DNA of 64,000 bases from an uncultured Candidatus Saccharibacteria bacterium (GCA_964510655.1 CAZEAY010000001.1:33421-97420), one strand, 5' to 3'. Counted from the stretch's first letter, positions 2,594-40,244 are shown. Notes: generated by a model from the sequence alone, not told the origin. Made by a program: numbers and translations.

Positions 2594-3529
2594 ATGAAAG
2601 ATTATTTGCAAAAAATAAAAAATAATATTTGGAATCATTCTTATTATGAAGAGGTTATAACTAAGCCCTTGTCTTCCTCTTTTAAATATTATGCCAAAAT
2701 GACTCTGTGGTTGGCTCTGATCTATACCGCTTTTGTTTCGATTGTTTTTTTGCCGGGGTTTATTGATCTCTCTCGTGACGTTATTTCTGGGGTAGTTGGA
2801 TCTTATCCGGCGGAACTCCAAGTTCATTTTCGTGACGGTAAAGCTTCCGTAAATATGCCTGAGCCGATTATTGTTTCTTTGTCTGATAAAGAAAGGACTA
2901 TTTTTAAAAATGCTCAAGTAAAATGGGGGGTTCCAGAAAATTTGTTTGTGATCGATACTCGCACCAATTTTAATTTAACTGAATTTTCCAACTATCGATC
3001 GTTGATGGTTTTGAAAAAAGATGCTTTTGCTGGCGTTGGTAGTAATGGTGAAGTTCGTGTTTCTAATGTTCCATCTGGTAATGTGATCATCTCAGGAGCC
3101 GATATTAAAAGAGTTGCCAATAAACTGCAGACGGCTATTTTAGTTCTGGCTCCTTTGGGAGTATTAATGGTTTATTTGCTAGGAGTGTTGTTCTTTATTT
3201 TGACTATTGGTTATTTGATTCTAATCGCCCTGTTTGCTTGGTTACTTTTGTATATCGCTAAGCGCAATATTACCTTCAAACAATCTTTAGCGGTTACTCT
3301 TCATGCAAGTACCTTTGCCTTATTGATTAACTTTTTAATTTTTGTTTTATACCCTAGCTTATCTTTGAATTTTCCTTTCTTAGTAACCTTTACTCTCTTG
3401 ATTACTTATCTTAACCTGGTTCGTAAACCTAAGGTGACAGTGACTATTCCGGCCAATGTGGCAGTTGATACGGTGGCAAAAGCGGAAGAAAAGGAGAAGG
3501 AAGAAGAGGTAAAGGAGAAAAAAGATTAA
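2594..3529 (+). CDS. hypothetical polytopic membrane protein with a KE-rich C-terminal tail
   Basis: ORF with several predicted TM helices; no motif recognised. Confidence 0.4.
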   Translation: MKDYLQKIKNNIWNHSYYEEVITKPLSSSFKYYAKMTLWLALIYTAFVSIVFLPGFIDLSRDVISGVVGSYPAELQVHFRDGKASVNMPEPIIVSLSDKERTIFKNAQVKWGVPENLFVIDTRTNFNLTEFSNYRSLMVLKKDAFAGVGSNGEVRVSNVPSGNVIISGADIKRVANKLQTAILVLAPLGVLMVYLLGVLFFILTIGYLILIALFAWLLLYIAKRNITFKQSLAVTLHASTFALLINFLIFVLYPSLSLNFPFLVTFTLLITYLNLVRKPKVTVTIPANVAVDTVAKAEEKEKEEEVKEKKD

Positions 3530-3550
3530 TCTAACACTCTCTTCTTAATA

Positions 3551-3583
3551 AAAAAAAGAACGACCCGCGTCGTTCTTTTTTGG
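3551..3583. terminator. bidirectional intrinsic terminator between convergent genes
   Basis: A-run, then hairpin gaacgacccgcgtcgttc, then T-run. Confidence 0.7.
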
Positions 3584-3584
3584 T

Positions 3585-4271
3585 TTATTTTAGAAGAAAT
3601 CTTAAAGTAGAGACAAGACGAATCTTTTTATATTCTGGTGAACCTGGATCTTTGTTCTCTATCTCAAAGACTCCCTGATTTCCGCGCGCTACACTGCCGA
3701 CAATCGAATTAGAGTTTTTAGCAAATTGTGAAGCTGTAACTTTGGCATTTTTTATCGCCTCAGCCAACATTTCTGGCTTGATGCTGTTTAGGTCTGAAAA
3801 TTCGAAGGAAATATTATTTTGACTCAAAACTACTCCATTTTTTACTAACAATAAAGTTTCGTTTGAGACGGATTTAGCCAAATCCACTTTTTTCGTATAG
3901 ACCGAAACTTGGTTATTGGAATTATATCTAAAAGCGGAATCGCGAAAAGTGTCTTGATAAATATTAACTGGGGCGATATTTATTTCGCTGTCTTCAAAGC
4001 CTCGTTGCTTTAGGAAGGCTCGAATGGTAGTAATATTTTTTTCAATCCCAGAGTAGAGTTCATCGACATTGTTTGATTTTACTTCGAAACTCATGGCCCA
4101 AATAGCAGTGTCGGCTTTAACTATTTTTTCTGATAGCCCTTTGACTTCAACATAAGAGGCCTGCTCGGAAAAATGTTGGGCCGAAATAAAGACTACCCCC
4201 GCTAATAAAAGAGTAATAATGATACTGGTGCTAATAAAAGCTAATTTATTATTTTTTATATTTTCCATCAT
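3585..4271 (-). CDS. SIMPL domain protein (DUF541, YggE-like)
   Basis: N-terminal signal/TM followed by a sequence pattern typical of SIMPL/DUF541 periplasmic proteins. Confidence 0.6.
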   Translation of the reverse strand: MMENIKNNKLAFISTSIIITLLLAGVVFISAQHFSEQASYVEVKGLSEKIVKADTAIWAMSFEVKSNNVDELYSGIEKNITTIRAFLKQRGFEDSEINIAPVNIYQDTFRDSAFRYNSNNQVSVYTKKVDLAKSVSNETLLLVKNGVVLSQNNISFEFSDLNSIKPEMLAEAIKNAKVTASQFAKNSNSIVGSVARGNQGVFEIENKDPGSPEYKKIRLVSTLRFLLK

Positions 4272-4379
4272 TTTGTGATTATAACATAAAATATAAATAG
4301 TTCAGACTACTGTACTGTTTTGTGTTATTGCCAAAGAGCTCTTTTTTGGTTATGATTGGCGAGTAAAAGTTTTAATTAT

Positions 4380-4504
4380 GGCTAAACCATTTTGATCACA
4401 AAATGGTCGCCCGAACAAATTTTTACTAAAATCTGTTTTAAGGCTAAACCAGTTTTTACGAGAAACTGGTCGCCCGAACATTTTTCTACTGAAAAATGTT
4501 TTAG
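4380..4504. repeat. two tandem copies (about 62 bp each) of a doubly palindromic repeat built around 'tCGCCCGAACA'
   Basis: Unit A (4380-4441) and unit B (4442-4504) each read GGCTAAAcc-[palindrome 1]-tCGCCCGAACA-[palindrome 2]-TTTTA(A)GG. Palindrome 1 is ccattttgatcacaaaatgg in unit A and ccagtttttacgagaaactgg in unit B. A third copy lies at 38989-39053. Confidence 0.8.
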
Positions 4505-4593
4505 GGAGGGGTCGCATAGTGGTCTAGTGCGCGCGCTTGGAAAGCGCGTAAGGTGTCAAAGCCTTCGAGGGTTCGAATCCCTCCCTCTCCGCC
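4505..4593 (+). tRNA. tRNA-Ser (anticodon GGA), class II with long variable arm, CCA not encoded
   Basis: Acceptor GGAGGGG/CCTCTCC. Anticodon stem CGCGC/GCGCG with loop TTGGAAA. Long variable arm. T-arm GAGGG-TTCGAAT-CCCTC. Confidence 0.85.
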
Positions 4594-4781
4594 TTCGCCT
4601 CGCAGTGGCTTGGCTTCGGCGTGACACAGTCCGTGGGAGTACTATTATTTACTATGTTTATTCTTTGAGGTATTGAAGTGAAAAAGAAAAATTAGTAACT
4701 CGTGACCGAATTTCTCTCCGCCTAAAAAATAACCCGCACTTGTTAGGTGCGGGTCTTTCGTTGTCAACATGATAAAGTCGA

Positions 4782-5219
4782 CTAAGTGAGGGAAGTCTTT
4801 GGATAAGGGACAGCTTCCTCCGGAATCGTTGAGATATTCACCAAGGCTAGGTAAAACGGACTCTCCTTGATTCCAAGTTGGGTCGAACAGATGAAGTGAC
4901 CCTTTTTGTGAGAAGGTTCGTTTATCAGGGTCGGGTAGGAAATCCGACCAGTTACCCGTGTTCCGCTTTCTCCAATACTCAAGTTGAGTCCACGGAAAAG
5001 GGTGGCGCCGTCGATAAACCTACCGTAGGCATTGATCTTGCCGTGTCCATCGTAGACGACCAGAGTTTCTACCGCCCCACTGGTTAATCCCAGAGTTAGG
5101 CGTTGTCGATTAAGGTAGGTAAAAACCTTCTCGTATTTCTCTTTGTCTGACCGATGCTTTCTGGTCGTTTTCTTGACTAGCGCTCGAAGTTCTTCTAGCC
5201 TACCTACACTATTTGTCAT
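4782..5219 (-). CDS. hypothetical protein; the ORF is GC-richer than its surroundings
   Basis: 145-aa ORF directly downstream of tRNA-Ser, about 50% GC by eye against an AT-rich background. A terminator-like hairpin (acccgcac…gtgcgggt) lies at about 4730-4755. No recognisable motif. Confidence 0.35.
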   Translation of the reverse strand: MTNSVGRLEELRALVKKTTRKHRSDKEKYEKVFTYLNRQRLTLGLTSGAVETLVVYDGHGKINAYGRFIDGATLFRGLNLSIGESGTRVTGRISYPTLINEPSHKKGHFICSTQLGIKESPFYLALVNISTIPEEAVPYPKTSLT

Positions 5220-5417
5220 GAGACCTTCCTCTTTCTTTTTTCTGTTTAAACCATACTACAAAAATAAATTTTTGACCATAGTATTTTTTCTTAGCAATTA
5301 TTTTATTAAGGTGTATTCTGTGGTAAGCTTGGACAGTGGGTAGTCAGCTAGACATAATGGTGGTACAATAAGGGGGTTCTATTTATCAGTAGAAGATTAA
5401 TAAATAATTAGAAATTT

Positions 5418-5672
5418 ATGGCGACAGCAAATTCAGCTTTTATGAAGCCAATGACCATCAGTGCAGAACTGGCGGAAGTTGTAGGAAAGGGTCCAATGCC
5501 TCGTTCGGAGGTGGTTAAGGCTCTTTGGGTTTATATTAAGAAGAATGATCTTCAAGACCCTAAAAACAAGCGTAATATCGTTGCCGATGCCAATTTGAAA
5601 AAAGTTTTTGGCGGTAAGGACGTTGTTAGTATGTTCGAAATGACTAAGCTTGTTTCCAAGCATTTGTCTTAA
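5418..5672 (+). CDS. SWIB/MDM2 domain protein
   Basis: 84 aa with the SWIB pattern (…RSEVVKALWVYIKKNDLQDP…IVADANLKKVFG…). Confidence 0.8.
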   Translation: MATANSAFMKPMTISAELAEVVGKGPMPRSEVVKALWVYIKKNDLQDPKNKRNIVADANLKKVFGGKDVVSMFEMTKLVSKHLS

Positions 5673-5766: not shown

Positions 5767-6399
5767 ATGTCTAAGATAAATTTAATTCTTGTTCGCCATG
5801 GTAAATCGGAATGGAATGCTTTGGGTTTATGGACAGGCTTGACTGATGTTGAATTAACTGAAGAGGGACGAGAAGAGGCCCGTCGAACAGCTAGAACTTT
5901 GGAGGGCTTGGGAATTAATCAAGCTCATGTCTCTGATTTAAAAAGAGCTAAGGAAACTTTGGCTGAAATACAGAAAAGTTTGGATACTCAAGCTTGGCCA
6001 GTTAAGGTTAGTTCTAATCTGAATGAACGTGACTATGGTGTTTATACTGGTAAGAATAAATGGGAAATTCAAAAAGAAGTGGGCGAAGCTAAGTTTTTAG
6101 ATATCAGACGAGGTTGGGATTGTTCTATTCCAGAAGGTGAGACACTTAAAGATGTTTATAATCGAACCGTTCCTTATTATGAAAAAGAAATTCTTCCAGA
6201 TTTGCAGGCCGGAAAGGTTGTTTTAGTTGTAGCTCATGGAAATTCTTTGCGGGCGCTGGCTAAACACTTAGAAGGTATTTCCGACGAAGATGTTGGAAAT
6301 CTAGAAATTACGACGGGGGAAGCTTGGTGTTATTGTATCGATAGTGATGGTAAAATGTTGAGTAAGGAGGTCCGATCTGCTAACTCTAATAAAGTCTAA
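5767..6399 (+). CDS. gpmA: histidine phosphatase family, 2,3-bisphosphoglycerate-dependent phosphoglycerate mutase-like
   Basis: N-terminal LVRHGKSEWN catalytic RHG motif with the GpmA-like pattern (…TGLTDVELTEEG…). Confidence 0.7.
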   Translation: MSKINLILVRHGKSEWNALGLWTGLTDVELTEEGREEARRTARTLEGLGINQAHVSDLKRAKETLAEIQKSLDTQAWPVKVSSNLNERDYGVYTGKNKWEIQKEVGEAKFLDIRRGWDCSIPEGETLKDVYNRTVPYYEKEILPDLQAGKVVLVVAHGNSLRALAKHLEGISDEDVGNLEITTGEAWCYCIDSDGKMLSKEVRSANSNKV

Positions 6400-18292: not shown

Positions 18293-18300
18293 ATATTGCT

Positions 18301-18648
18301 TCCTATCTATAAGCCGAATTCTGTATCCGACCAAGGTCGGACGGCAGTTATTTATCTGGGCTGATTGTTGCCAATCAGCTCTAGCGACACGAATCGAAGG
18401 AAACCTTCGAAACACGGTCTTGCACTTAAGTAAGGGTTTAGCCGTTTCACTTCGAATGTTTCCATTCGAACTTACCCCGAAGGGTATTTTAAATCTTTCG
18501 ATTTAAAACGTCTCTGCTCGCACCTCGCGGATTGCTCCGGACGGGAATTACCCGCTACCTGGCTCCAAACTTGCGTTTGGAAGTGTTCGGACTTTCCTCT
18601 CTGACTTTCATCAGAGTAGCTGCCCAATAGGGAACTCCTTAATTATAA
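18301..18648 (-). ncRNA. rnpB: RNase P RNA (bacterial)
   Basis: The minus-strand reading contains the P4 core GAGGAAAGUCCGaac… and the 3' ACAGAAuuCGGCUUAuag element, with GC-rich stems in a region that lacks a credible ORF. Ends are approximate. Confidence 0.7.
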
Positions 18649-34559: not shown

Positions 34560-34627
34560 TAATAAACAGCAATAATATAACATTTTTTTGAGAAAAAGCA
34601 AAAGTATGTTAGATTTAACCTGTTTAG

Positions 34628-37581: not shown

Positions 37582-38832
37582 TTATTTACCCTTTGATCGT
37601 CGGAGAAAGGCAGGAATAGAAGACCAGTCATCATCTTCCACATCTTCAGTAGGTTCTTCGATTGGCTTAGTTGTTGCTTGGTTTGGGGCGGGGGTGACAC
37701 GAGAAAATAGTGGTCGGTTGTAGTCTCTTTCAACCTCCTTTTCTTTTTCTTTTACAACTGGAGGGATATCAGCTGCGGCTACGGTGGGAGTTGGAGTATT
37801 GTTTATTTCTATCTTGTTGGCTGGTTTACTTTCAAAACCACTAAAAATACCACCACTGGTCGCTTTCTTTTTCCCTAGTTCAGGGAATCCGGTAGCAATA
37901 ACGGTAATTTTGATTTCGTTTTTCTTTAGTTTGTCATCGTAGATAGCACCAAAAATAACTTTAGCCTCGCTATCAATTGCTTCGGTAATGAGCTTAGCCG
38001 CATCCTGAATTTCAAACATGGTCATATCGGAACCGCCAGCAATAGTAAACAATACTCCACGAGCTCCATCGATTGAAATATCGAGTAGAGGAGAATTGAT
38101 GGCTGCTTTGGCCGCTTCAATGGCCCGATTTTCACCAGAAGCACTACCAATTCCCATCAGAGCGGAACCAGCGTTTTGCATAATGGTACGAATGTCGGCA
38201 AAATCCACGTTGATAATACCTGGCATCGTCACGGTGTTAGACAAACCCTCCACGGCTTGGCGCAGGATTTCGTCACACATCGCGAAAGCGGATGAACAGG
38301 TAGTGTCCTTGGTTATAACATTCATTAATCGGTCGTTAGGAATAGCAATAACCGCATCTACTTCTTTGCGTAATTCTTCGATTCCTCTTTCGGCAATCGC
38401 TCCGCGTTGTTTTCCTTCAAAGAAAAATGGTTTAGTAACAATTGCCACTGTCAATGCTCCTTGGTCTTTGGCAATTTTTGCAATTACCGGAGCGGCTCCG
38501 GTTCCTGTTCCACCACCCATTCCGGCCGTGACGAAAACCATATCAGCTCCTTTGATCACATTTTGAATATCTTCCAGACTTTCTTCAGCCGCCCGACGAC
38601 CAATATCGGGGTCCATACCTGTACCTAGACCACGGGTTAAGTTTTTTCCAATGTGAATTTTTTTATCAGCGGGAGAGCGGTGCAAATGTTGAGCATCGGT
38701 GTTCATGGCGATGAATTCCACTCCTTTTACTTTAGATTCAATCATGTGATTGATGGCGTTTGATCCGGAACCCCCAACACCAACAACTTTTATTCTTGCA
38801 AAGGCTTCAATTTCGGGGTTAATTTTGGGCAT
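37582..38832 (-). CDS. ftsZ: cell division protein FtsZ
   Basis: Tubulin signature GGGTGTG and N-terminal IKVVGVGGSGSNAINHM. Confidence 0.9.
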   Translation of the reverse strand: MPKINPEIEAFARIKVVGVGGSGSNAINHMIESKVKGVEFIAMNTDAQHLHRSPADKKIHIGKNLTRGLGTGMDPDIGRRAAEESLEDIQNVIKGADMVFVTAGMGGGTGTGAAPVIAKIAKDQGALTVAIVTKPFFFEGKQRGAIAERGIEELRKEVDAVIAIPNDRLMNVITKDTTCSSAFAMCDEILRQAVEGLSNTVTMPGIINVDFADIRTIMQNAGSALMGIGSASGENRAIEAAKAAINSPLLDISIDGARGVLFTIAGGSDMTMFEIQDAAKLITEAIDSEAKVIFGAIYDDKLKKNEIKITVIATGFPELGKKKATSGGIFSGFESKPANKIEINNTPTPTVAAADIPPVVKEKEKEVERDYNRPLFSRVTPAPNQATTKPIEEPTEDVEDDDWSSIPAFLRRSKGK

Positions 38833-38931: not shown

Positions 38932-38962
38932 AAAAAAACCGCTTTGTGTAGCGGTTTTTTGG
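38932..38962. terminator. hairpin with flanking A and T runs between ftsA and ftsZ
   Basis: aaaaaaaccgctttgtgtagcggtttttt. Confidence 0.6.
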
Positions 38963-38988: not shown

Positions 38989-39053
38989 GGGCTAAAACAT
39001 TTTTTACTCAAAATGTTCGCCCGAACAAATTTTAGTAAAAATTTGTTTTAGGG
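38989..39053. repeat. third copy of the 'tCGCCCGAACA' doubly palindromic repeat
   Basis: gggctaaaac-[attttttactcaaaat]-gttCGCCCGAACA-[aattttagtaaaaatt]-tgttttaggg, in the same architecture as 4380-4504. Confidence 0.8.
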
Positions 39054-40244
39054 CATAAACTCTTTTATCCATTTGAAGACCGTTTTCTTTAGGCCGTATC
39101 CTTCACTAGAAGATTTTTTACCTTCCAGTTCGTATTCATAGTCGTAAGAACAGAGACCATAAGCGACCGACCAGGAGGGATCAATTGTTTGATTATTATT
39201 TCCTTGGATTTTAGCTGGAGCGGCAACTTTGGCGGGGAGGCGGAAATAATCTTTAGCCATTTCTTCGATGTTTAATATCGTACTGCCACCTCCAGTAATA
39301 ATAATACCGGCTGGTAATAAACCACTGCGTCCTAATTTTTTTAGGTGGACTTCAATATATTCAAAAACATCAGACATCCGAGCTTCAATAATTTCATCTA
39401 ATTTTTTCCGTGAACCATCTGGTTCCAATTCTCGTTTTTTAATTCTATCGGCTTCTTCTAGAGGAATTTTGAAACCAAGGGCAATGTCGTTAGTAATGTC
39501 GGTGGAACCAATGGGGAAAATATGAACCGAGAGGGGAATGTTTTCTTCAAAAACAGCGATAGAGGTAGTTTGTGACCCAATGTTGGTTAAGACGCAACCA
39601 GAAGCTTTTTGCATTTTTGATAAAATCACCGTACTAGAAGCCAGCGGTGAGGCAATAATGTCTTCAACGATCAAGTTTGCTTCTTCGGCGGCGGTGACAA
39701 AATCTTTAAGATGCTGTTTGGAGTAAGTGACAAACATTGTTCGGACTTCCAGTTTGGAGCCCCTCATTCCTTCTGGTGTTCCTAACACTCGTCGGCCGTC
39801 TAGTTTGAAAGCGATTGGTACGCGATGCATTACTTGGCGGTTGGCCATATCTGTTAAGTTACTTTCGCTATCTTCTACTGCGCGTCTGATGTCGTTTTGG
39901 TTAATCTCTAAATCCGCTCTAGAAACCAAGGTGCTACCGTCGGCCATGCGTGATTCTAGGGTGGCTCCGCCAATCCCAAGATAAATTCGTCTGATTTTAA
40001 TTTTTGAGGCTTTTTCGGCTTCGGCTACGGTTTCTTGCAAACAATCTATGACCTCTTCAATATTGATGATATAACCACGTCTTAAACCACGTGAACTCTT
40101 TTTCACTAACGCTAAAATATGCGGATTACTCGATCCGCTTTTCCATTCGCAAACCGCAATGCGGATCCACGACGTTCCAATATCTAAACCTGTGACTATA
40201 TTTCGGGAGCTCATTTTTTGAGGTAATGCGAACGAGACTCCCAA
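39048..40244 (-). CDS. ftsA: cell division protein FtsA
   Basis: Actin-like ATPase motifs (GLDIGTSWIRIAV, IITGGGS). Confidence 0.85.
   Translation of the reverse strand: MGVSFALPQKMSSRNIVTGLDIGTSWIRIAVCEWKSGSSNPHILALVKKSSRGLRRGYIINIEEVIDCLQETVAEAEKASKIKIRRIYLGIGGATLESRMADGSTLVSRADLEINQNDIRRAVEDSESNLTDMANRQVMHRVPIAFKLDGRRVLGTPEGMRGSKLEVRTMFVTYSKQHLKDFVTAAEEANLIVEDIIASPLASSTVILSKMQKASGCVLTNIGSQTTSIAVFEENIPLSVHIFPIGSTDITNDIALGFKIPLEEADRIKKRELEPDGSRKKLDEIIEARMSDVFEYIEVHLKKLGRSGLLPAGIIITGGGSTILNIEEMAKDYFRLPAKVAAPAKIQGNNNQTIDPSWSVAYGLCSYDYEYELEGKKSSSEGYGLKKTVFKWIKEFMP

Follow-up and report, generated by a model that had tools for sequence, protein, structure and literature searches.

Small DNA elements built around hairpins have been described in several kinds of genome, and they offer comparisons for a repeat that occurs twice in tandem ahead of a tRNA-Ser gene in a stretch of 64,000 nucleotides from an uncultured Candidatus Saccharibacteria bacterium (GCA_964510655.1 CAZEAY010000001.1:33421-97420; hereafter the window, meaning the whole stretch analysed). 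The repetitive extragenic palindromes (REP), bacterial interspersed mosaic elements (BIME) and REPINs of Proteobacteria, which are mobilised by RAYT proteins, are short extragenic palindromes in doublets of inverted units with tags at the hairpin foot; they occur in many copies per genome and within transcription units, and a folded single strand is presumed to be their active form. Insertion sequences (IS) of the IS200/IS605 group and their non-autonomous derivatives, the palindrome-associated transposable elements (PATEs), have subterminal hairpins and sites that pair with an internal guide, insert sequence-specifically and can re-insert in tandem. Integron attC sites keep structure over sequence and are recognised as a folded single strand. 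The repeat studied here resembles these three groups in the features named, of which the folded single strand and the guide pairing would apply to it only under the mechanism proposed below. Correia elements and Rickettsia palindromic elements, which land in or beside RNA genes, are small and non-coding and have inverted-repeat ends; their target duplication is short, neighboring genes are transcribed together with them, and genes tolerate them in their interior. Mitochondrial double-hairpin elements and the GC clusters of yeast mitochondria are mobile two-hairpin units of ~40–80 bp with short direct repeats, found in intergenic regions and in rRNA and tRNA spacers.

The repeat in the window is best read as a double-hairpin miniature insertion element whose centre complements its own target duplication. 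We think it probable that it is a non-autonomous mobile DNA element, akin to miniature inverted-repeat transposable elements (MITEs) and REP sequences, that is specific to ultra-small bacteria, the Patescibacteria of the Paceibacteria/Parcubacteria type, and has target complementarity built into it. By analogy, it would work most like REP/BIME or IS200/IS605-type hairpin elements and small MITEs. A REP- or MITE-like nature had been proposed in a first-pass annotation of the window, and is supported by further copies, by compensatory changes in the hairpin arms and by orthologous sites that are filled in one genome and empty in another. As in MITEs generally, the units are shorter than 300 bp, non-coding and bounded by terminal inverted repeats, with a target-site duplication and with presence or absence at orthologous sites (seen between species).

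An exact 11-mer, TCGCCCGAACA, occurs three times in the window, always on the + strand, against a shuffle expectation of 0.01. A covariance model trained on five copies from outside the window, and run over all of it with filters off, found exactly three full copies with scores of 51–69 bits; the remaining hits were noise. The first copy, C1 (4380–4443, + strand, 50.9 bits), consists of GG (4380–4381), CTAA (4382–4385), hairpin 1 (4386–4407), the centre CGCCCG (4408–4413), hairpin 2 (4414–4437), TTAA (4438–4441) and a second GG (4442–4443) that is common to C1 and its neighbor. This neighbor, C2 (4442–4506, + strand, 67.1 bits), continues from the common GG with CTAA (4444–4447), hairpin 1 (4448–4470), CGCCCG (4471–4476), hairpin 2 (4477–4500) and TTAG (4501–4504), and its closing GG (4505–4506) is G1G2 of tRNA-Ser(GGA). 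C3 lies at 38990–39053 (+ strand, 68.8 bits), with its CGCCCG at 39018–39023. The tandem pair is located where the first-pass annotation had put it, and the third copy, correctly placed between ftsA and ftsZ, has been refined to these coordinates.

To follow the family, we searched a single genome of each species for the pattern GGCTAAA..TCGCCCGAAC..GTTTTA; stretches retrieved in this and later scans carry L-numbers as labels. The novelty claimed for the repeat family, with further copies elsewhere, is borne out: it comprises at least 118 stretches, from about 92 assemblies by accession prefix among the matches listed. Those matches are, apart from L012, from Patescibacteria-type assemblies (Nomura-, Kaiser-, Taylor-, Yonath-, Vogel-, Lipton- and Harrisonbacteria, Paceibacterota and Minisyncoccia); the assembly of L012 bears the label of a Micrarchaeota archaeon bin. 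The ftsZ-ftsA region of the window is syntenic with L004 at 70–77% nucleotide identity, which places the window in the same lineage. The family is apparently undescribed: full-text literature searches returned no account of it, and no Rfam family fits the units at gathering or permissive thresholds, the best sub-threshold score being 23 bits against a cut-off of 80. The core motifs of hammerhead, twister, guanidine-II and purine riboswitch RNAs do not seem to fit either. A phage origin was rejected; the single match in viral contigs, L119, is judged to be a chance match because it lacks the first hairpin and is rich in G+C.

We extracted 131 elements for their anatomy. The blocks GGCTAA, CGCCCG and TTAGGG are invariant among them, each hairpin is 15–30 nt long, and whole units measure 52–72 bp, contain no open reading frame (ORF) and have termini CTAA(A)...(T)TTAG. 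The AAC/GTT at the foot of hairpin 2 was imposed by the scan pattern and is variable in extra copies from the same loci. This variability bears on integron attC sites, whose inverse core and core (RYYYAAC/GTTRRRY) are resembled by CTAA(A)AC...GTT(T)TAG in the element. In an attC site, R''/R' boxes, an L box and extrahelical bases belong to one long hairpin, which is found next to intI at the 3' ends of cassettes, whereas the element has two separate perfect hairpins around a conserved centre, no cassettes, and contexts in the leaders of tRNAs and transfer-messenger RNAs (tmRNAs).

The flanks of the element are complementary to its centre. The left GGC is complementary to GCC, positions 2–4 of CGCCCG, and the right GGG to CCC, positions 3–5, so the element has the formula XY-CTAA-H1-CG-Y'X'-CG-H2-TTAG-XY, in which H1 and H2 are the hairpins and XY, which is GG in the window, stands outside the termini on both sides. 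Five rare variant types each keep both complementarities exactly. Written as left flank/centre/right flank, these are GTC/CGACCG/GGT (L051), AGC/CGCTCG/GAG (L059), GAC/CGTCCG/GGA (L092), GCC/CGGCCG/GGC (L055, L076 and L078) and GGT/CACCCG/GGG (L008 and L093). In an independent metagenome scan, we fixed the left flank as GA and allowed either A or T at two places, the third base of the centre and the final base of the right flank. Two perfect hairpins were present in 37 of the 120 stretches returned, and all 37 have CGTCCG with GGA, the single predicted combination among the four possible ones. The remaining 83 stretches, not hairpin-validated, are spread across all four combinations. Human-gut assemblies are the source of many of the hairpin-less matches (L125, L127, L128, L135, L142 and others), which are 70 nt long and are probably chance matches to one recurring unrelated sequence. 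That the flanks are arbitrary host sequence is ruled out, since GGC and GGG are invariant and the flanks are therefore tied to the element. Variant XY types and the GG type are found together in the same genome stretches, so the specificity resides in the element and not in a lineage-specific protein.

This arrangement differs from those of the described systems. IS200/IS605 elements have separate left and right guides, each 5' of its hairpin, and neither terminal inverted repeats nor a duplication, whereas the element has one shared central guide and direct-repeat flanks. REP sequences carry the tags GTAG or CGTC at the 5' foot of an imperfect palindrome of 20–40 bp, while the invariant tag of the element is (GG)CTAA on either strand, with GTAG sporadic and confined to the flanks; the 2-bp direct repeat with its internal complement, the highly variable arms and conservation across a class, where REP sequences are conserved across a species, are further differences. 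Neisseria Correia elements and Rickettsia palindromic elements are like the element in size class, inverted-repeat ends, duplication and placement in or beside genes, but they are 100–150 bp long, with a conserved sequence and without variable perfect hairpins, and Correia elements duplicate TA where the element duplicates XY. We know of no MITE of the Correia or Rickettsia type with an internal complement of its own target. The mitochondrial double-hairpin elements and GC clusters match the element in size, in their two hairpins and in their direct repeats, but are organellar, eukaryotic and unrelated in sequence; to our knowledge, covariation between flank and centre has not been described for them.

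Folding predictions for DNA show the flank-centre helices prolonging one hairpin or the other, and the two helices are mutually exclusive on one strand. The first-pass annotation had pictured a three-way cloverleaf closed by nearly complementary outer ends. Only 4 bp of that outer pairing, CTAA with TTAG, stand; the conserved GGC and GGG flanks pair with the central CGCCCG instead, and the covarying contacts link each flank to the centre rather than forming an outer stem. In tandem arrays, the XY dinucleotide is common to neighboring units. The upstream unit of such arrays mostly ends in TTAT or TTAA rather than TTAG, as at 4438–4443 in the window and in L002, L027, L034, L045, L053, L058 and L068, an ending that weakens the pairing to position 5 of the centre. 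Arrays of the CRISPR or TIGR (tandem interspaced guide RNA) kind were considered and rejected, as there are only one to three units and the would-be spacers are self-complementary.

The hairpins themselves are conserved in structure rather than in sequence, as the first-pass annotation had suggested from arm sequences that do differ among the window units. C1, C2 and C3 fold far more stably than shuffled sequences on both strands, with RNA or DNA parameters (z = –3.5 to –6.1). We counted stem pairing from the hairpin foot, free of any alignment, with arm-shuffled sequences as the control. Positions 2 and 4–9 are paired in 88–99% of cases against 41–76% in the control, and position 10, where stems start to end, in 73–83% against 44–45%; all four Watson-Crick pair types are present at each of positions 2 and 4–10. 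In a model-based alignment of 150 hits, 98.4% of cells are paired, compared with 66.7% after shuffling, and sliding the 3' partner by 1–3 columns lowers pairing to 33–54%. With 674 double-sided changes in this alignment, the arm covariation is overwhelming.

Several observations indicate that this covariation acts on DNA. Among 2258 stem pairs there are 27 G·T pairs and 30 A·C mismatches, and in the 43 copies that adjoin an RNA gene, where the transcribed top strand is certain, the counts are 3 and 8 of 740 pairs. The loops AGTA and TACT occur in similar numbers in both orientations (13 and 9 in hairpin 1, 10 and 12 in hairpin 2), and loop orientation is flipped between the orthologous copies of L101 and L107 and among the tandem copies of L015. 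At orthologous sites the flanks are 76–92% identical while hairpin 1 is only 33–61% identical; hairpin 2 is sometimes 100% identical. One 22-nt module that forms hairpin 1 in a single genome recurs in six others as hairpin 2, and two genomes each hold identical complete elements at two different loci. Given the symmetric mismatches, two-way loops, module swaps and identical copies at separate loci, the hairpins behave as DNA palindromes, and the repeat family is copied and reshuffled as DNA. The structure on one RNA strand that had been entertained earlier thus finds no support, G·T and A·C being equally rare and the loops free to flip. These results also count against the main rival to a mobile element, a functional structured RNA module in 5' leaders and spacers that aids RNase P processing or insulates or stabilises transcripts and is kept by selection on the RNA, with its spread being secondary. 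We consider such a module unlikely: the transcribed strand has no excess of G·U over A·C, loops and whole modules are freely flipped and swapped, and Rfam holds no matching family.

A side observation concerns the number of hairpins. L074 (2819–2914) and L060 (around 2790–2855, – strand) carry a three-hairpin variant with a unit of ~96 nt, whose centre is CGCCCTAGGGCG plus a third, G+C-rich hairpin (GGGTGACACCC).

Comparison of filled and empty sites shows insertion that duplicates 2 bp at the target. In the tmRNAs of L027, L045 and L059, the element lies within a hairpin loop downstream of the tag-coding region, and the related tmRNAs of L033 and L098 are without it. The empty sites read ..TATAAGATG-AG-GCATAAT in L033 and ..GAGAGCT-GG-GCATAAT in L098; the filled ones read ..GTAG-AG(CTAA..TTAG)AG-GCAT in L059 and ..AAGG-GG(CTAA..TTAG)GG-GCAC in L027 and L045. 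There is a single XY when the site is empty and two when it is filled, and the AG-type element is found where the empty allele reads AG. A divergent pair of tRNA-Ser(CGA) and tRNA-Glu genes gives a second comparison, in which both sites are empty in the window, L088 is filled at tRNA-Ser only, and L095 is filled at both; in the filled cases the first GG of the tRNA itself comes after TTAG. In L072 the element lies inside the stretch that the RNase P RNA model covers, with the conserved GAGGAAAGUCCG one base after TTAG and, in pairwise alignment, ~60 extra nucleotides at the position of the element. The P1 and P2 segments of this RNA, complementary to its 3' end, appear to lie upstream of the element, which would therefore sit in the P3 loop.

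Elements nested between inverted repeats number 11 of 140, against ~3 expected. Some GA-type elements (among L139, L220, L190, L176, L239 and L189) are flanked by 5–9-bp inverted repeats, which looks like insertion into the loop of a pre-existing hairpin. As a general rule, insertion into pre-existing hairpin loops was rejected, given the 11 cases in 140.

Measured from the GTTTTA of the element to the start called by ARAGORN, the 5' end of an RNA gene (15 tRNA and 15 tmRNA genes) adjoins 30 of 135 elements at offsets of –5 to +5 nt, nearly all 0–1, and Rfam identifies seven further sequences starting 'GGGGATG..' as tmRNAs that ARAGORN missed. Three copies abut a tRNA by their other end, TTAGCC, and those tRNAs begin with GCC. 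Seven copies end 5–15 nt ahead of a start codon (for example in L005, L030, L040 and L084), and the TAA of the element is the stop codon of the upstream gene in 10 cases and of a convergent gene in 7. At tRNA genes, extended –10 promoters (tgcTATAnT) lie 13–30 nt upstream of the element (L021, L024, L039, L052, L095, L096 and L073), and the layout in the window is alike.

These contexts bring in two further alternatives. One is that the element is a promoter, or positions transcription starts for stable RNA genes, with CGAAC-N18-GTT resembling a promoter of the extracytoplasmic function (ECF) class and GGG as the start. Its appeal is that tRNAs and tmRNAs have their first bases in the GGG end and that a spacing of 17–18 nt is promoter-like. 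We regard this as hardly credible, and dropped the specific form CGAAC-N18-GTTTTA followed by GGG: AAC/GTT is an artefact of the scan and variable once that bias is removed, leaving GGCTAA, CGCCCG and TTAGGG as the only invariant blocks, the spacing varies over 15–30 nt where a sigma-70 or ECF promoter has conserved –35 and –10 hexamers at a set distance from the transcription start, ordinary extended –10 promoters are already present upstream, copies lie within tmRNA and within the RNase P RNA model span, and C3 would fire antisense into ftsA. The palindromy of the spacer would also be left unexplained.

The other is an intrinsic, possibly bidirectional, terminator or attenuator, formed by two hairpins that are each followed by TTTTA on their own strand. 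On each strand a hairpin does precede a T-run of about four, and some copies lie at gene ends, where the TAA so often serves as a stop codon. However, A/T-rich stems are joined to only a short T-run, and a scan for a G+C-rich stem followed by at least five T in 8 nt called no terminator-like site on the units. A terminator in the order promoter, element, tRNA would moreover end the tRNA transcript, and neither the conserved hexamers nor the flank-centre covariation would be explained, so we hold this account to be very improbable. A canonical terminator comes after C3 in any case. This is a palindrome at 38932–38960, between C3 and ftsZ and outside the element, which consists of an A-run, ACCGCT, a loop, AGCGGT and a T-run and resembles a bidirectional terminator; the simple scan missed it, probably on account of the A/T runs, which lengthen the stem.

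Within the window, the surroundings of the three copies follow the same contexts. The mature 5' end of tRNA-Ser(GGA) (4505–4593, +) directly follows the TTAG of C2, and a sigma-70-like promoter, TTGCCA-17-TATGAT (4328–4356, +; a consensus match only), lies upstream of C1. As this match precedes both units, C1 and C2 would belong to the leader of tRNA-Ser that RNase P is expected to remove; the gene for the RNA of this enzyme is itself in the window (18294–18635, –). C3 is oriented in reverse to the transcription of ftsA and ftsZ. Its end supplies the last codon and stop (CCC TAA) of ftsA (39048–40244, –), the TTA at 39048–39050 being the ftsA stop codon, TAA, on the – strand; ftsZ (37582–38832, –) lies downstream of C3 on that strand. 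GTTTTAA(G) motifs occur 4–5 nt upstream of C1 (4369–4375) and of C3 (38977–38984). Both resemble right ends of the element standing alone, perhaps left over from tandem units that have since disappeared. The tRNA-Ser(CGA) gene of the window, which has no element, is preceded by GTTTAG directly before its GG (34622–34627), which could be a preferred target context or the footprint of an excision.

Two other observations concern the neighborhoods of copies elsewhere. In L024, L038, L052, L056, L077 and L114, tRNA genes beside the element seem to be interrupted soon after their 5' end, and ARAGORN puts the tRNA 74–286 nt further on. This is consistent with group I introns, which have been reported in tRNA genes of Patescibacteria (bioRxiv 10.1101/2025.07.03.662931). 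In L049, two inverted three-unit arrays (3491–3654, +, and 5922–6085, –) surround a 2.3-kb segment that holds a 196-aa ORF of unknown function, tRNA genes and a 249-aa ORF with LAGLIDADG-like motifs (4728–5477), and no transposase.

A number of results weigh against a mobile element, some of them by favoring the RNA module. IS200/IS605 elements depend on a Y1 transposase, and REP systems have a single-copy RAYT (Y1 HUH) gene with REPs on either side; tblastn searches of 880 kb of element-bearing loci and the window with IS200, IS608 and E. coli RAYT queries, a weak test, gave no hit below E = 0.6. No autonomous parent with the same termini and encoding a transposase was seen in the 880 kb. The strong bias of IS200/IS605 elements for the lagging-strand template has no counterpart here, with 50 copies on one replication strand and 41 on the other by local GC skew (p = 0.40; a weak test on 8-kb stretches). 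The comparisons of filled with empty sites are all between species and none within populations. In unambiguous co-directional contexts, 28 copies are oriented forward and 10 in reverse with respect to transcription (~3:1). The element is kept upstream of tmRNA in ~30 assemblies across deep divergence, and is present at tmRNA in all three of three loci picked without reference to it. The ftsA-ftsZ copy occurs at the same site in the window and in L004, in the latter as an orthologous copy of C3 with the same hairpin 1 stem and an unrelated hairpin 2. Selection for a host function would also explain such same-site retention. Finally, in the tmRNA copy of L045, whose centre is CGCTTG, the flank-centre pairing seems to have been kept in place, including G·T pairs (G·U in RNA) on the transcribed strand, which hints at RNA-level constraint, at least within tmRNA. 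An RNA module would also account for the transcribed position between promoter and mature RNA and for copies that abut RNase P cleavage sites, and the two exclusive pairings of the centre resemble a two-state RNA. It fits less well with the quarter or so of copies, C3 included, that are antisense to transcription, and with the single element-bearing tRNA among the seven of the window, the orthologous tRNAs of close relatives being without the element. The mobile and RNA-function readings are compatible, since a host can co-opt a mobile element.

A possible source of the mobilising activity emerged from clustering neighboring ORFs. In ~27 Paceibacteria loci, the interval from smpB to the junction of element and tmRNA holds a gene for a stand-alone GIY-YIG protein of 89 aa, which matches PF01541 and the UPF0213 proteins 1ywl and 1zg2. 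The order smpB, GIY-YIG gene, element, tmRNA is seen in L120 (9557–10786), L122 (9530–10359) and L124 (9536–10746), and also in L033, L098, L023 and L099, with an element on each side of the GIY-YIG gene in L023 and L099. Three loci selected through the GIY-YIG protein alone have no elements within 20 kb other than those placed exactly between its gene and tmRNA. The association is confounded, because the tmRNA 5' end is a preferred site anyway, and we take the UPF0213 nuclease next to the tmRNA copy as a lead, a candidate for the mobilising enzyme suggested by gene order. A second, divergent GIY-YIG gene occurs just downstream of tmRNA in L023 (5541–5807), L059 (3389–3628) and L098 (4979–5263).

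GIY-YIG enzymes such as I-TevI and Eco29kI make cuts that leave 2-nt overhangs, which would fit a 2-bp duplication. It is conceivable, if doubtful, that the element is a self-addressed unit in which the central CG-NN-CG pairs with target and junctions, moved in trans by a UPF0213 GIY-YIG protein whose staggered cuts would give the 2-bp duplication. A different use of the same enzyme, which we find more doubtful still, is that the element is no transposon in the strict sense but a recombination or cleavage site for a structure-specific host enzyme, the GIY-YIG protein being a candidate. Three G-XY-C sites would be cut and rejoined, hairpin cassettes shuffled and inverted, and the unit occasionally copied elsewhere. 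The same tetranucleotide-like motif is indeed present at the left junction, at the centre (on the opposite strand) and at the right junction, hairpin modules are replaced and loops inverted, and the 2-nt overhangs, the conserved gene order and the bracketed GIY-YIG genes would be in keeping with it. The preference for the tmRNA 5' end confounds the link to the enzyme here as well, and the element is present at tmRNA in L009 and L011, where no GIY-YIG gene separates it from smpB. No activity is known for the UPF0213 family, and the coexistence of XY types in one genome makes a protein that reads XY unlikely.

The element inserts at a dinucleotide XY, which then stands on both sides and is always the complement of the central dinucleotide of the element itself. 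For the mobile element that we favor, we propose the following mechanism. In a folded single strand, both junctions (XY-C and G-XY) would pair with the central G-Y'X'-C, and this pairing may set the points of cleavage and joining as well as the target, much like the pairing of guides with cleavage sites in IS200/IS605 and REP/RAYT systems. A putative host enzyme would do the cutting and joining. Copies would survive where an extra 60 nt do no harm. Such places would be the leaders of RNase P substrates, downstream of the promoter and ahead of the mature 5' end (C1 and C2 before tRNA-Ser), loops within tmRNA or RNase P RNA, short untranslated regions, and the ends of genes, which can take their stop codon from the TAA of the element (C3 and ftsA).

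The genomes of Patescibacteria, or the candidate phyla radiation (CPR), are small and usually called poor in mobile DNA, and here a 60-bp family spans a whole class. For annotation, the family accounts for odd 5' extensions, for insertions of ~60 nt in tmRNA and RNase P RNA models, and for the apparent stop codons that it contributes. The strict match between XY and centre suggests that a very small element chooses its target by base pairing, which bears on the current interest in guide-directed insertion. From the gene order at tmRNA comes a concrete, testable idea of what the uncharacterised UPF0213 GIY-YIG proteins may do. If movement by these proteins is true, it would amount to a protein-plus-DNA-guide insertion system of minimal size and would give UPF0213 proteins their first function.

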